From Arenicellales bacterium (GTDB lineage Bacteria > Pseudomonadota > Gammaproteobacteria > Arenicellales > JAJDZL01): a DNA stretch of 64,000 nt. Below are positions 25,393 through 38,571 of the stretch, in pieces; within the stretch, counting starts at the first letter, position 1; every line of letters starts with the position of its first letter. The notes beneath the pieces were generated by a model. That model made no database searches. It saw only the letters and a program-made list of their open reading frames with translations, and was not told the origin of the DNA. The stretch covers positions 71,433 through 135,432 of the forward strand of contig CBDCPT010000004.1 in NCBI GenBank assembly GCA_965220395.1. The letters are read 5' to 3'. The position numbers were made by a program, and so were the translations under genes.

Positions 25393-26172
25393 CTATGCCT
25401 CTTCGAGTGCCTCGACTGACTCTGGAATCGTCTGGCCGCCGTCTACAACAATTGTCTGGCCCGTAATGTAACCCGCTTCGTCAGATGCAAAAAACAATGC
25501 GGCGTTTCCTATATCCGCGACTGATCCCAGACGCTTCAATGGAATTGATGCCGCCATCGTCTCAAGGTAATCCTCTCCAAGACCCATTAGTCCCTCCGTT
25601 ATGATGTTGCCCGGCATAACTGCATTTATCGTGATTCCGTACTTGGCGAATTCCATGCAAGCGGTTTTCATAAATCCCAGTTGACCTGATTTACTTGCAC
25701 CATAGTGCGTCCAGCCTGGATATCCGGTTATGGGACCGGTAATAGAAGATGTCAATATGATTCGACCACAACTGCTCTTCTTGAGATACGGCAAGCAGCT
25801 CTTTATTGCAAGAAATGTTCCTTTCAGGTTTGTTCCAAGCACAAGATCCCACTCGTCACTAGACATGTTTTCCAAATGGCTCTGAGGAAATGTGCCGGCA
25901 TTGCAACACAACACATCAATCCCGCCATGGCGCTCGGTCGCAGCAGCTGCCATGGCATCCAACTCCTCAGAATTCGTTACATCTGCCGAGAATGCGGATG
26001 CTGTACCACCTGACTCGCGGATTTCCGCTGCCGTAGCTTCGGCGTCAGGAAGCCCGCGTGCAACAATCAACACCCGCGCACCTTGATTGGCAAATACCGT
26101 AGCAATTCCTTTTCCAATTCCTTTACTGGATCCGGTCACTATGACCGATCTGCCTTCTACTGACGTAAGCAT
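25393..26172 (-). CDS. Short-chain dehydrogenase/reductase (FabG-like); candidate amino-alcohol dehydrogenase of the BMC pathway
   Basis: 259 aa with TGSSKGIGKGIA (TGxxxGIG), NAG, and the catalytic YGASKSG (YxxxK). Confidence 0.85.
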   Translation of the reverse strand: MLTSVEGRSVIVTGSSKGIGKGIATVFANQGARVLIVARGLPDAEATAAEIRESGGTASAFSADVTNSEELDAMAAAATERHGGIDVLCCNAGTFPQSHLENMSSDEWDLVLGTNLKGTFLAIKSCLPYLKKSSCGRIILTSSITGPITGYPGWTHYGASKSGQLGFMKTACMEFAKYGITINAVMPGNIITEGLMGLGEDYLETMAASIPLKRLGSVADIGNAALFFASDEAGYITGQTIVVDGGQTIPESVEALEEA

Positions 26173-26378
26173 GACTCATTTACCTCGCTCTAGTTTGATT
26201 GATTTTTTAATAGGTTCGGATAATGTACTGATTTCTGAAACAACAATGCAACAATTTCGCATTTTCGGTGCGTTATCAACAATTCGATATCAACTGTCAA
26301 GTTATTTTTGATTTACTCAAATAAATTGAGCGTGTAAGAAACCAAATCCCTGTCCGTATTGGGGCAAAGGAGGATTAC

Positions 26379-27695
26379 ATGAAAGAAACAAAGCAGGAAT
26401 TTTTGGAACGCACTAAAGAATACTGGAATCCAGGGAAAACTACCGACTGGCAAAACTTTGGAGTAGACCTGGTGATCGATCGGCGAGAAAGCTACTATCT
26501 GTACGATATGGATGGAAAGCGTCTGATTGATGTTCACCTGAACGGAGGCACATACAATCTCGGGCATCGCAACCCGGAAGTCGTGGCGGCAGTGAAGGAG
26601 GGAATGAAATATTTCGACATCGGTAATCACCACTTTCCTTCGTTAATGCGAACACATGTCGCGCAGATGCTGGCTGAGTGTACTCCCGAAGGATTGCAGT
26701 ATACAATCTACGCATCAGGCGGCGGCGAAGCAATCGACATTGCACTTAAGTGTGCACGCCACGCCACCCAAAGACGTAAAATTATCTGCATTGATCATTG
26801 CTACCACGGTCATACAGGACTCGCAGTGCAAGTCGGCGATGATCGATTTTCCAAACTGTTTCTAAGTGATTCACCGAAGCAGGAGGTCGTCAAAGTTCCG
26901 TTCAACGATCTTGAGGCGATTGAGCGCGAAATTCGAGTGGGTGACGCAGCTTGCGTAATCATAGAGACGATTCCTGCAACTTATGGGTTTCCCATGCCAA
27001 AACAGGGGTACCTGAGTGCAATAAAGGCGGCCTGTGAAAGAGTCGACACACTGTTCATCGCTGATGAAGTGCAGACTGGCTTAATGCGATGTGGCGAAAT
27101 TTGGGGGATTGACACTTATGGAGTCATACCCGATATATTGGTGACCGGAAAAGGACTGTCAGGTGGAATCTATCCGATTGGTGCAGTCGTAGTCAGTGAG
27201 CGGGCCGGAGCCTGGCTGAAAGAAGACGGTTGGGGACACATGTCTACATTTGGCGGTGCTGAGCTAGGTTGTATTGCAGCAGCCAAGGTGCTTGAGATTT
27301 CCAATCGGCCTGAAGTGCGTTCCATGGTGCACTACATTGCACAATACATACGCAGCGGACTGGAACAGCTTCGGAAAAATTACTCTGACTTTTTTGTCGG
27401 CATTCGCCAAAGAGGTGTTGTAATTGGGTTGGAATTCAGTCACCCGGAAGGTGCGATTCATGTTATGAAAGCATTGTTCCGCAACGGCGTCTGGGCTATA
27501 TTCTCGTCCTTGGACCCAAAGGTGTTGCAGTTCAAGCCGGGAATTCTAGTTGACAAGGAGCTCTGCGACGAAATTTTGAACCGACTCGATACTGCTTTGG
27601 GACAAGCACGGGCATCTGCTTTTCAGGGAGTTACTGCAAGAAAATCCGCAGACTCGAACCAACAAGTGAAACGGGAGATGGCTAACGCTGCATAA
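26379..27695 (+). CDS. Class-III aminotransferase-fold PLP enzyme (transaminase or phospho-lyase)
   Basis: 438 aa with ADEVQTGLMRCG and a PLP-lysine region VTGKGLSGG. AAGGAGG lies upstream of the ATG. Confidence 0.85.
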   Translation: MKETKQEFLERTKEYWNPGKTTDWQNFGVDLVIDRRESYYLYDMDGKRLIDVHLNGGTYNLGHRNPEVVAAVKEGMKYFDIGNHHFPSLMRTHVAQMLAECTPEGLQYTIYASGGGEAIDIALKCARHATQRRKIICIDHCYHGHTGLAVQVGDDRFSKLFLSDSPKQEVVKVPFNDLEAIEREIRVGDAACVIIETIPATYGFPMPKQGYLSAIKAACERVDTLFIADEVQTGLMRCGEIWGIDTYGVIPDILVTGKGLSGGIYPIGAVVVSERAGAWLKEDGWGHMSTFGGAELGCIAAAKVLEISNRPEVRSMVHYIAQYIRSGLEQLRKNYSDFFVGIRQRGVVIGLEFSHPEGAIHVMKALFRNGVWAIFSSLDPKVLQFKPGILVDKELCDEILNRLDTALGQARASAFQGVTARKSADSNQQVKREMANAA

Positions 27696-27715
27696 CAACA
27701 GAACAGGAGAAAGAA

Positions 27716-36295: not shown

Positions 36296-36301
36296 TTATC
36301 T

Positions 36302-36907
36302 CTACATCCTTGCTTCCAATGCTTCTTCCGCTGCTCGAGCTGCGGAACGTACATCGCTCTCCGAGCCGCTCAGATAGACCCGACCCGTTGCGCCGATCAT
36401 TCGATAGTCAACGACCTTAACATCCGCCGCTTTCTCCGCTTCATTCGTAGCCAATATGCTGTATGAGGCAGGTTGCATCTCAAGGACAAAAAGCGACTCG
36501 CCAGGCAGTGCCATAGAGCCAAGTTTGTTTCGATTGATCAAGAATGCATGGTAGTCATCGACTCGCTTTACGATGGTTGACGCAAGAATTTCGGGCGGTA
36601 AGGCATCACTAGCATTTGCATTGAGAGTCTCCATTACCGCCTCTCCCCCTGCGACAACGTCGGCGGTTGAATGCGAGTGGAATTCCAGATAGCCGAATTG
36701 ACGTTCTACCACCAAAATTCCAGGCTTTACATTGACACTCTTCAATGCGATATCCGTTATTCCTTCAATGTGCAGCCCTGGAACAACTTCTATAACCATT
36801 GCCGCCATGTTGGTTTTCGGTAGGTATCCACGAATCCAACTTCCTAGATAGCACATGGTTTTAGGCTGAAGTTGATCTATGAAAATGTAGGAACGAATGT
36901 CAGCCAT
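36302..36907 (-). CDS. BMC shell protein, tandem-domain (BMC-T), paralogue
   Basis: 201 aa with two BMC-like halves (...TDIALKSVNVKPGILVVERQFGYLEFHS... and ...NEAEKAADVKVVDYRMIGATGRVYLSGSESDVRSAA). Its ATG overlaps the AldDH stop codon by 1 nt (TAATG). Confidence 0.75.
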   Translation of the reverse strand: MADIRSYIFIDQLQPKTMCYLGSWIRGYLPKTNMAAMVIEVVPGLHIEGITDIALKSVNVKPGILVVERQFGYLEFHSHSTADVVAGGEAVMETLNANASDALPPEILASTIVKRVDDYHAFLINRNKLGSMALPGESLFVLEMQPASYSILATNEAEKAADVKVVDYRMIGATGRVYLSGSESDVRSAARAAEEALEARM

Positions 36908-38571
36908 TAGTGTCGTGACTCACTCACAAGTTGTAACGATCTGATCTCTTCAAGAATGATGCGGTGAATTTCATCTCGCAAGTCTCGCCCAATGGCTCCA
37001 TCACCGTTTTCGGAATTCGAATATCCTGATGAATCGTTAGATTCAAATCCACTGGAAAATGAGTAGTCGATAGGCCCGTCACCCCGACCATAGGGTCGTA
37101 CTGCAGGTAATACGAAGTTGTCGAACTCTCTCATGTCGACAGTTTCATCCTTGCTATAAGCGACCTTTGACCACTGCACCAGGTGTTGCGGTCCGACGTT
37201 CTCTCCGACTGAGCTTCTACCGAAAAATCCGGTACCGACAGTCATCGTGGGAGCTAGATTCGTATCAAATCCCGAAGCGCCGGTACTGCACGGTGCATTC
37301 ACTGGAGTTCTCAGAACGTTGAGATGAGCCCCGAATTCAAGAATCACTTTCTGATCCTTGCAGTGAATGGCTGCTGAATGCCCGCTTCCCATTCGACGAA
37401 CCATTGCGCTGCACGCTTTGAACGCTGCATCTCGATTGGAAACCGTGTAAAAACCCAAAACCGGACAGAGCTTTTCTCGGCTCAATACATAATCATCACC
37501 AATTCGTTCGAGAGGAGTCACTAGAACTCTAGTTTTGGCGGGGACTCGAATTCTAGCCCGTTCCGCAATCCATTCAGCAGACTGGCCGATGACAGCTGTA
37601 TCAAATTCACCTTCCGGAAACAGCACATCTGCCAAGCGATCACGCTCCTCATCACTGCACAGATAACATCCATTTTTTTGTAACGCCACAATCAGTGCGT
37701 CGTTGATTGATTTATGGGCAATTACGGCGGATTCATTGGTACACAAAACACTGTTGTCGAACGCCTTGCTGTCCGAAATGCACTTTGCAGCATGTTCAAT
37801 ATCGGCGGATTCATCGACAAATGCTGGACAATTGCCCGGACCGACGCCGAGTGCAGGATTGCCTGAACTGTACGCAGCCCGAACCATTGGAGAACCACCT
37901 GTGGCGAGTATCACATCAACTCGTTCAGAACTCATTATCGCGTGGATGACTTCCAAAGTTGGATTCTCAATGACTTGAACAACTCCATCAGGTGCACCCG
38001 CTTTCTCAACAGCCTCGGCGAGCTTAAGTGCGGCATCTGTGCAGCACTCTTTCGCTGCCGGGTGCGGACTAATTACAATCGAATTTCGAGTCATCAATGC
38101 AAGTAATACCTTGAAGAAAACCGAGCAAACCGGATTGGTAGAAGGAGTCAATGCAAAAACAACTCCTGCAGGACGAGGAATTTCGACTACCTGTCGTTGG
38201 TGGTCAACTCGGTGGCTGGTAAAATTCTGATCCTTGTAATACTCGAAAATCCCCTCACTGCACATCCGATTCTTGATTTCCTTGTGATCGGCATTGCCGA
38301 ACCCAGTTTCAGCTACTGCCCAGTCTGCATACTTTCGAGCAGTCGCCTCACCCAGATCAGCAGCCGCTTTAGCAATTCGTAGAACATCTTCACGAGCGTA
38401 GTTCGAAAAGACGCTTCCTGCCCATTGAGCGCGATCGATTACCCGATTCGCTTGAAATACTGGTGTTGGATGTGAGTAAGTTGTCATTTGGCTAAAATTC
38501 AGCTGTCTCCGTACGGCACTTCGCCTTGTAGAACAAATTCTATTTGCTGCCAAATGATTGATTCTTGACAA
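36907..38571 (-). CDS. CoA-acylating aldehyde dehydrogenase (PduP/EutE-like BMC signature enzyme) with a C-terminal encapsulation-peptide-like helix
   Basis: It has an ALDH fold with the catalytic Cys in [13 protein letters not shown]. The C-terminal low-complexity linker ([20 protein letters not shown]) is followed by the amphipathic [19 protein letters not shown]. The likely true start is ATG 38487 (MTTYSHPT), not the track start 38571. Confidence 0.85.

Follow-up and report, generated by a model that had tools for sequence, protein, structure and literature searches.

The Rhodococcus/Mycobacterium microcompartment (RMM), also catalogued as AAUM, is a metabolosome with a proposed role in the utilisation of aminoacetone and 1-amino-2-propanol. 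It was once regarded as exclusive to Actinobacteria (Axen 2014). A later survey separates RMM1/AAUM1, with 140 loci in "various Actinobacteria and Proteobacteria", from RMM2/AAUM2, with 32 loci in "a variety of Proteobacteria" such as Pelagicola CECT 8287, Paracoccus yeei TT13 and Gammaproteobacteria TMED61, and defines the RMM/AAUM shell as one BMC-H, one BMC-P and two different BMC-T(dp) proteins (Sutter 2021 Supplementary Data 2). In the trees of that work, Vibrio and Polaromonas are among the carriers of RMM1, and Pelagicola and the metagenome-assembled genome (MAG) Gammaproteobacteria TMED61, the latter with a 209-aa rmmT2, are among those of RMM2; RMM2 is stated to be without satellite loci (Sutter 2021). 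Here we describe a locus at positions 25393–38571 of a 64,000-nt stretch of contig CBDCPT010000004.1 (hereafter the window) from a marine Arenicellales gammaproteobacterium. Judged from its sequence, the region very probably encodes a complete metabolosome of the RMM/AAUM type. It is an intact, correctly typed and ordinary instance of a catalogued organelle and not a new system.

Gene content and typing of the locus

The locus was typed from Pfam matches of the open reading frames (ORFs), searches of its proteins against all PDB sequences, NCBIfam models and a comparison with plasmid pRHL2 of R. jostii RHA1. The shell operon lies on the minus strand and begins with a CoA-acylating aldehyde dehydrogenase (AldDH; 36907–38571; Pfam Aldedh), whose start is most likely the ATG at 38487 (giving 526 aa, in line with the gene calls of relatives) rather than the TTG at 38571. 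It continues with a BMC-T of the double-stacking type, the orthologue of MSM0275 (rmmT1), named T201 here (36302–36907; Pfam BMC), a conserved RMM-specific protein of 176 aa (35765–36295; recognised from the conservation of its slot and by hhalign to an RHA1 hypothetical protein), the BMC-P pentamer or vertex protein (35492–35758; Pfam EutN_CcmL 5.1e-22), the BMC-H hexamer protein (35177–35458; Pfam BMC 1.2e-27) and a second BMC-T of the double-stacking CcmP/CsoS1D type, the orthologue of MSM0271 (rmmT2), named T209 (34478–35107). By coordinates, AldDH and T201 overlap by 1 nt, and the gaps that follow are 6, 6, 33 and 69 nt.

The enzyme genes form a second module. A short-chain dehydrogenase/reductase (SDR; 25393–26172, minus strand; Pfam adh_short_C2 7.6e-60), a probable (S)-1-amino-2-propanol/aminoacetone dehydrogenase, is divergent from a plus-strand pair. 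This pair comprises a class-III aminotransferase-fold enzyme dependent on pyridoxal phosphate (PLP) (AT; 26379–27695; Pfam Aminotran_3 3.4e-72), a candidate O-phospho-aminopropanol phospho-lyase, and, 20 nt further on, an APH-fold kinase (27716–28729; Pfam APH 3.2e-24), the orthologue of (S)-1-amino-2-propanol kinase. The end of the kinase gene is 5.75 kb from the shell operon. Every ORF of the system is intact, and the nine system genes are full length with their catalytic motifs, their products being 86–99% identical to those of relatives. We recovered all ORFs and spacings of a preliminary description of this DNA, which had already assigned the locus to the RMM type.

That assignment is backed by one-to-one matches with the Mycobacterium smegmatis proteins. 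T201 has MSM0275 (5L39) as its best PDB match at 4.6e-85 (287 bits; next match 188 bits) and scores only 156 bits to MSM0271, whereas T209 has MSM0271 (5SUH) at 7.7e-77 (261 bits; next 155 bits) and scores only 135 bits to MSM0275. This reciprocal pairing of the two BMC-T proteins with rmmT1 and rmmT2 recurs against the RHA1 proteins. T209 has no Pfam match of its own, yet it is clearly a tandem BMC-T, and a near-identical orthologue has a precomputed CsoS1D_N match. The best natural PDB match of BMC-H is MSM0272 (5L38; 3.4e-34) and the best PDB match of BMC-P is MSM0273 (5L37; 2.2e-20, next 1e-10), and we regard both as orthologues. The kinase, which has 6381 homologues at E<=1e-60, matches 6EF6 at 3e-85 (289 bits), the next entry being at 5e-12 (48 bits); the SDR matches 6CI8 and 6CI9 at 1e-94, and ordinary FabG-type SDRs follow at about 1e-52. 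With one BMC-H, one BMC-P and two different BMC-T(dp) proteins, the shell inventory is that of the RMM definition.

The annotated RMM locus of pRHL2 has its core genes in the same order, AldDH-T-hypothetical-P-H-T, and identities to the RHA1 proteins are 65.5% for T1, 59% for T2, 69% for H, 43% for P and 45.5% for AldDH including its C-terminal tail. A search of the plasmid collection gave five BMC-T matches, including this RHA1 reference; no RMM2 reference locus was found in that collection. From 23.6 to 43.6 kb, all ORFs of 150 aa or more were assigned, and none is a phosphotransacylase (PTAC; PduL/Pta), an alcohol dehydrogenase, a B12-dependent or glycyl-radical enzyme, or a eut/pdu signature gene. 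For this interval the absences listed in the preliminary description (PduL/Pta, B12, glycyl-radical, eut/pdu) thus hold, and RMM/AAUM loci in the literature are likewise without PTAC, alcohol dehydrogenase, B12-dependent or glycyl-radical enzymes. The EUT, PDU, GRM and carboxysome-like types were rejected, because no signature enzymes are present and because CcmP, CsoS1D and the HO shell are much poorer matches to the shell proteins than the RMM proteins are. A promoter and terminator scan of 25–39 kb gave fewer sites than shuffled sequence and was uninformative.

Proposed pathway

Mallette & Kimber 2018, in the account of PMC8156839, proposed a route from aminoacetone through aminopropanol, its phosphate and propionaldehyde to propionyl-CoA. 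At the Arenicellales locus, the SDR would reduce aminoacetone to (S)-1-amino-2-propanol, which would then be phosphorylated by the APH-fold kinase. The PLP enzyme, acting as a phospho-lyase, would yield propionaldehyde, ammonia and phosphate, and the shell-targeted AldDH would turn the propionaldehyde into propionyl-CoA within the shell. We infer this route here from the orthology of the SDR and the kinase and, for the PLP enzyme, from gene association.

The sequence of AT contains DEVQTG and the GK lysine, and its orthologues, 60–73% identical, adjoin the kinase gene in RMM loci from three phylogenetic groups. AldDH is one of the CoA-acylating enzymes, as PDB acylating AldDHs match at 1e-97 to 1e-80 and the catalytic Cys context VLCTNE is present; NCBIfam models of the EutE/AdhE type match below their cut-offs. 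RMM/AAUM is among the metabolosome types for which the regeneration of NAD+ and CoA is unexplained in the literature, and this locus adds nothing there.

Encapsulation signals and the 176-aa protein

The C-terminus of AldDH consists of a low-complexity linker followed by the motif (D/E)LR.EIR.(I/L)(I/V)LEE(L/I)R, a predicted encapsulation peptide. This tail motif is kept in RHA1 and, in all phyla, in nearly all loci for which an in-frame C-terminus could be read, which agrees with the earlier proposal of an acylating AldDH with a C-terminal encapsulation peptide. At this locus, encapsulation-peptide-like helices are found only on AldDH and on the 176-aa protein.

The preliminary description placed an unknown protein between the first BMC-T and BMC-P. 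The placement is right, and the gene is a conserved component of the RMM core with an unmatched fold, as far as sequence and model comparisons go. In both proteobacterial and actinobacterial loci, every in-frame ORF recovered from this slot encodes a protein of the same architecture. The window protein has an N-terminal amphipathic helix (DQIRAVVREALREAL), a small alpha/beta domain, a disordered linker and a C-terminal beta-alpha-beta-alpha-beta domain. All family members that were read share the helix consensus IR..VREAL.EAL, the small middle domain and a low-complexity linker, and their C-terminal domain carries an invariant TPLA.DRAR motif. An Arenicellales profile aligned by hhalign with the RHA1 RMM hypothetical protein WP_011600239.1 at a probability of 98.9% (E 1.5e-17). 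A profile search of a library of 1.84 billion proteins returned 693 cluster representatives. Proteins of the family have 145–236 aa, the longer members having longer linkers and no added domains. An internal repeat, suspected from stretches in the profile search, was dropped after the sequences were read.

No Pfam (to E<=10) or NCBIfam model matches the 176-aa protein. Its AF2 model is of moderate quality (pLDDT 73, pTM 0.35), with folded parts at pLDDT of about 85, and no PDB structure matched it by Foldseek with E below 0.1, the top matches being 47-residue fragments of unrelated proteins. Because AldDH and this protein alone carry peptide-like helices, we speculate that the 176-aa protein might act as a scaffold, or as an adaptor through which the untagged lyase enters the shell. 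The protein offers a handle on which RMM enzymes are encapsulated and on how cofactors are supplied.

Two further observations concern the enzyme in the lyase position. RHA1 pRHL2 encodes a 535-aa class-III aminotransferase (11294–12901 of the plasmid locus, L082) that is 24% identical to the window AT, and it ends in ~29 residues (SGVGLGDGAVREELRRLIVEELRGLIGQNHG) that match the C-terminal encapsulation peptide of AldDH exactly. An enzyme in the lyase position can therefore be targeted directly. The T-hyp-P-H block of this plasmid is duplicated. Many AT orthologues in Arenicellales, Alphaproteobacteria and some Actinomycetota have a basic or disordered tail that ends in -AA (ELADAA, RQSAA, RRVAA, IRAA), and this conserved Ala-Ala could be a protease-recognition or shell-docking signal.

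Distribution of related loci

When one genome per species was scanned, a relative of T201 was found encoded in at least 578 stretches, many of them alphaproteobacterial, and the best 80 of these (79 distinct loci) were analysed. Co-occurrence was scored by tblastn of the window proteins against these loci, "nearby" meaning within 10 kb of the shell operon. All 42 full-length loci from outside Arenicellales encode AldDH, both T proteins, H and P. AT, APH and SDR are all nearby in 36 of these 42 loci, AT and APH only in two, and SDR only in four, so that AT and APH accompany the shell in 38/42 and SDR in 40/42. The kinase and AT are thus co-conserved with the shell, as the preliminary description would require, and the co-occurrence of the enzyme trio with the shell across phyla adds to the support for its RMM typing.

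Gene order varies with the host group. Actinomycetota have AT-AldDH-T-x-P-H-T-APH-SDR on one strand; Dongiaceae and Rhodospirillaceae have SDR-APH-AT-AldDH-T...; Hyphomicrobiales and Aestuariivirgaceae have SDR ... AldDH-T-x-P-H-T followed by convergent APH and AT. Among loci outside Arenicellales, the window is closest in both order and sequence to the last, alphaproteobacterial group (AldDH 56–65%, H 84–87%). The closest loci overall are on Arenicellales MAG chromosomes, where T201 is 98–99% identical (L003, L004), and T201 is 86–93% identical in 16 further Arenicellales or "Gammaproteobacteria" MAGs. Arenicellales is a gammaproteobacterial order that includes sponge-associated candidate families according to the literature, and several of the related MAGs appear, by their locus names, to come from sponges.

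The preliminary description regarded RMM loci as mainly actinobacterial. This view is outdated, as Sutter 2021 lists Proteobacteria including a gammaproteobacterial MAG and our scan found many alphaproteobacterial relatives. Proteobacterial RMM has been known since 2021, and an argument for novelty on this ground fails. Our literature search found no paper that names Arenicellales and microcompartments together. The type is hereby extended to Arenicellales, with little consequence for classification.

Split modules across Arenicellales

Ten of the 18 full-length Arenicellales loci have a complete shell operon and no AT, APH or SDR within 10 kb. Kinase homologues of 74–80% identity appear to be present in six of these genomes, three of which were mapped by coordinates, and in these three about 160–460 kb of the same chromosome separate the shell and enzyme modules. 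The shell operon and the enzyme module lie at 414.6–435.2 and 3777.9–3794.9 kb of a 3.82-Mb contig, at 2346.8–2367.4 and 2629.9–2647.0 kb of a 3.71-Mb contig, and at 363.0–383.6 and 194.8–211.8 kb of OZ244840. All three enzyme modules keep a UDG-LplA-SDR | AT-APH context, which is followed by LipB-RlpA-MltB-RodA-PBP2-MreDCB in place of the shell operon. The junction between the kinase gene and the shell operon is a recurrent breakpoint.

A large NAD-specific glutamate dehydrogenase (GDH; 38788–43590, minus strand; Pfam Bac_GDH_CD 3.5e-258) is encoded directly upstream of the shell operon on the same strand, and GDH is upstream in 13/20 Arenicellales loci. Encoded at 55958–61078 (also L001 1–2976) are a regulator of the AraC family and a Pot-like ABC importer, which comprises two permeases, a TOBE_2 ATPase and a substrate-binding protein (SBP). 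The SBP (59927–61078) has 383 aa, a Tat signal (SRRNFLK) and no Pfam match. In relatives, the genes for the AraC regulator and the importer directly adjoin the GDH-AldDH-shell operon, including in genomes with a distant enzyme module, and their products may serve the organelle as regulator and substrate importer. The proteobacterial context read earlier from the neighbouring genes agrees with the Arenicellales host, and of those genes the one for the Tat-signal SBP was recovered.

An insertion between the two modules

Collinearity of the window with the three closest loci, L001, L003 and L004 (~93% nucleotide identity; blastn range 92–95%), is broken at three places by blastn. One of them lies between the two modules. 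In these relatives the locus is contiguous, and two genes for YHS-domain (seleno)proteins are adjacent, ~330 bp apart, without ATPase genes. In the window the same two genes (28841–29305 and 33938–34399, both plus strand; Pfam YHS; NCBIfam NF041384 at 157 and 168 bits, cut-off 70) are separated by an insertion of ~4.3 kb at about 29507–33815, with bounds of +/-40 nt. The blastn homology to relatives ends at 29465 and returns at 33810–33818, and the bounds of the insertion allow for diverged native sequence. The two YHS paralogues are 58% identical to each other and have signal-peptide-like N-termini. In most Arenicellales loci the shell operon has a YHS gene after it, and this also holds for L007, L010, L016 and L019, whose enzyme genes are elsewhere. 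The YHS genes are native neighbours and probably not part of the organelle.

The insertion carries two intact genes for 391-aa ATPases with AAA_14 and DUF4143 domains (Pfam), of the candidate defence type PDC-S01. Copy 1 (29945–31120, plus strand; PADLOC PDLC04790 4.7e-96) and copy 2 (31942–33117, minus strand; PADLOC 7.2e-84) are convergent, and their products are 58% identical to each other (BLASTP). A relic of a group-1 glycosyltransferase (33334–33831, minus strand; Pfam Glycos_transf_1) consists of two short ORFs, with profile positions 18–71 in ORF 33586–33831 and 87–159 in ORF 33334–33555. A second copy of the native intergenic sequence 29341–29506 was found by repeat search at 31471–31639 (plus strand; ~85% identity; 78–80% to the intergenic DNA of relatives by blastn). 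This direct repeat of ~166–169 nt brackets the first ATPase gene, its second copy lying between the two ATPase genes. Apart from this internal repeat, the inserted content is absent from all 82 related loci. No terminal inverted repeats and no short target duplication were found at the 4.3-kb insertion, and its only feature is the direct repeat of the native flank, which suggests two successive events at one site, with recombination as an alternative.

The preliminary description took the whole 5.7-kb spacer as accreted DNA, full of relics and bounded by two YHS paralogues, and proposed that the contiguity of the halves be checked in related genomes. The halves are contiguous in the three relatives, and the interruption by insertion stands, although only ~4.3 kb of the spacer is inserted. 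The YHS genes are where they were said to be, but they are native rather than accreted, and the spacer holds two intact ATPase genes and a single confirmed pseudogene fragment instead of many relics. In a recent ancestor the two modules were still contiguous, and this genome then gained ~4.3 kb of accessory DNA between the native YHS genes. Because the insertion interrupts no gene and the units are separately transcribed anyway, it should have no effect on function, and we consider it a minor strain-level event. The survival of both modules after separation in other Arenicellales also argues that this small insertion is harmless.

Alternative readings

Several points weigh against the assignment to aminoacetone and 1-amino-2-propanol utilisation. 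The molecule names of the matched PDB entries are generic: we take 6EF6 to be the (S)-1-amino-2-propanol kinase, and 6CI8 and 6CI9 to be the M. smegmatis RMM aminopropanol dehydrogenase. The nearest solved relatives of AT are putrescine aminotransferases (3e-50), human ethanolamine-phosphate phospho-lyase (ETNPPL, 6TOR) scores only 2e-30, and AT passes no NCBIfam cut-off, so that its phospho-lyase role is put forward from gene association and the literature proposal. No encapsulation peptide is recognisable on AT, the kinase or the SDR, all of which align end to end with their homologues, and the adaptor role of the 176-aa protein, whose fold matched nothing by Foldseek against the PDB, is speculative.

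The same architecture might serve another substrate, with the kinase and lyase acting mainly on ethanolamine or another small amino alcohol, for example from lipid head groups or from host-derived amines in a sponge or marine setting, and giving acetaldehyde or another aldehyde and acetyl-CoA instead of propionyl-CoA. The nearest named families of AldDH are indeed acetaldehyde dehydrogenases of the EutE/AdhE type, albeit below cut-offs, the RHA1 RMM locus includes an ethanolamine permease, and the GDH-shell operon of relatives directly adjoins the AraC regulator and the Pot-like ABC importer with its Tat-signal SBP. The M. smegmatis kinase is also said to be only "moderately specific". An ethanolamine route, however, needs no SDR, yet an SDR accompanies 40/42 full-length non-Arenicellales loci, and, with the PDB entries identified as above, the kinase and the SDR have as close orthologues enzymes that were characterised with 1-amino-2-propanol and aminoacetone. 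We consider another main substrate decidedly unlikely. It is very improbable that the PLP enzyme is a true transaminase that converts aminoacetone, putrescine or another amine to methylglyoxal or an aminoaldehyde for AldDH, with the adjacent NAD-GDH regenerating 2-oxoglutarate and the kinase having some other purpose. Transamination of aminoacetone to methylglyoxal was the first proposal for the type (Axen 2014), putrescine aminotransferases are the best solved relatives of AT, and GDH is conserved upstream in 13/20 Arenicellales loci. But the adjacent AT and APH genes accompany the shell in 38/42 non-Arenicellales loci, of which none has GDH; and GDH is not beside the shell in L005, L006, L012, L018 and L020, so the linkage looks like inherited synteny. 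The kinase, moreover, is a specific orthologue of what we take, through 6EF6, to be the aminopropanol kinase.

The third reading holds that the locus is decaying, its foreign DNA and mobile elements marking a dispensable, non-functional remnant. Three insertions relative to the closest relatives (~4.3 kb, 7.4 kb and 12 kb, the last with three tyrosine recombinases and with transposases) and a pseudogene fragment would fit this. We find it barely credible, as the nine system genes are full length with 86–99% protein identity to relatives and kept catalytic motifs, and the 4.3-kb insertion is intergenic, between separately transcribed units. Separation is also tolerated elsewhere: six relatives with non-adjacent modules keep a 74–80% identical kinase on the same contig, and the three mapped ones have a complete SDR/AT/APH module. 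A bolder reading, which we hold to be rather unlikely, builds on the RMM assignment itself. The Arenicellales RMM would be a two-module system that has been repeatedly uncoupled, SDR | AT-APH being one module and the shell operon, together with NAD-GDH, an AraC regulator and a Pot-like amine importer, the other, and the 176-aa family would be an unrecognised adaptor for the untagged phospho-lyase. If true, the lyase and AldDH would be the sole cargo, and this would settle which RMM enzymes sit inside the shell. Irrespective of this reading, only two points merit follow-up, the splitting of the locus and the conserved accessory protein.

Other elements in the window

The segment 43860–55945 is a 12-kb insertion relative to L001, L003 and L004, which are contiguous there. 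Part of it is GC-rich (56–59% vs ~47%), and with three tyrosine recombinases (46048–47487, 50090–51034 and 51031–52035) it looks like a recombinase-in-trio element. It is interrupted by a 754-aa fusion of a DruA-like protein and a DDE transposase (47431–49695), and a second DDE transposase lies at 54883–55650. A 7.4-kb segment at 16193–23653 is missing from close relatives; its 1696-aa ORF (18069–23159) has Mrr-type nuclease and ResIII/DEAD helicase domains and looks like a defence gene. The region 1154–6652 encodes a Transposase_29 protein (1154–3376), an AAA_15/AAA_21/DUF3696 ATPase (4329–5468) and a GmrSD-N protein (5465–6652), which look like a small defence or mobile cluster.

A polyketide-synthase-like ORF of 2497 aa (7526–15019) is conserved beside the enzyme module in relatives, where gene calls of the counterpart show KS, AT (here a polyketide-synthase domain), DH and methyltransferase domains. 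Adjacent pairs of small ORFs at 43900–44408 and 61729–62568 are antitoxin- and PIN-toxin-like by eye, for example 62155–62568 ("LLDTCAVIW...").

Comparison with known systems

The animal pairs of kinase and phospho-lyase in the AGXT2L family (AGXT2L2 with hydroxylysine kinase; the ethanolamine-phosphate phospho-lyase AGXT2L1) share the reaction logic of the proposed pathway, in which an amino alcohol gives an aldehyde, ammonia and phosphate. Both systems pair an APH-fold kinase with a class-III aminotransferase-fold enzyme. The relationship is only distant, as 6TOR matches AT at 2e-30, below the putrescine aminotransferases, and the animal enzymes work without a microcompartment.

RMM1/AAUM1, as represented by M. 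smegmatis MC2 155 and R. jostii RHA1 (Axen 2014; Mallette & Kimber 2017, 2018; Sutter 2021), is alike in shell inventory, in the collinear core and in the AldDH tail motif. The SDR, the APH-fold kinase and the class-III AT-fold enzyme are present in both, and PTAC and alcohol dehydrogenase in neither. The window differs in its gammaproteobacterial host and in its arrangement: actinobacterial loci run on a single strand as AT-AldDH-T-x-P-H-T-APH-SDR, whereas in the window APH and AT point towards the shell operon, with the SDR divergent from them. Neither a GntR regulator nor a permease was seen near the window locus, which has an AraC regulator, an ABC importer and GDH instead, and it contains the YHS genes and the 4.3-kb insertion. 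The RHA1 copy on pRHL2 differs further by its other AT (24% identity), which bears its own encapsulation peptide.

An affiliation with RMM2/AAUM2 would fit the proteobacterial gene order of the window locus and the length of its rmmT2, which at 209 aa is the same as in the Gammaproteobacteria TMED61 member. RMM2 is described as having no satellite loci (Sutter 2021), whereas in Arenicellales the enzyme module often lies away from the shell operon. Such split RMM loci qualify that statement, and they matter for automated locus callers that need shell and enzyme genes together.

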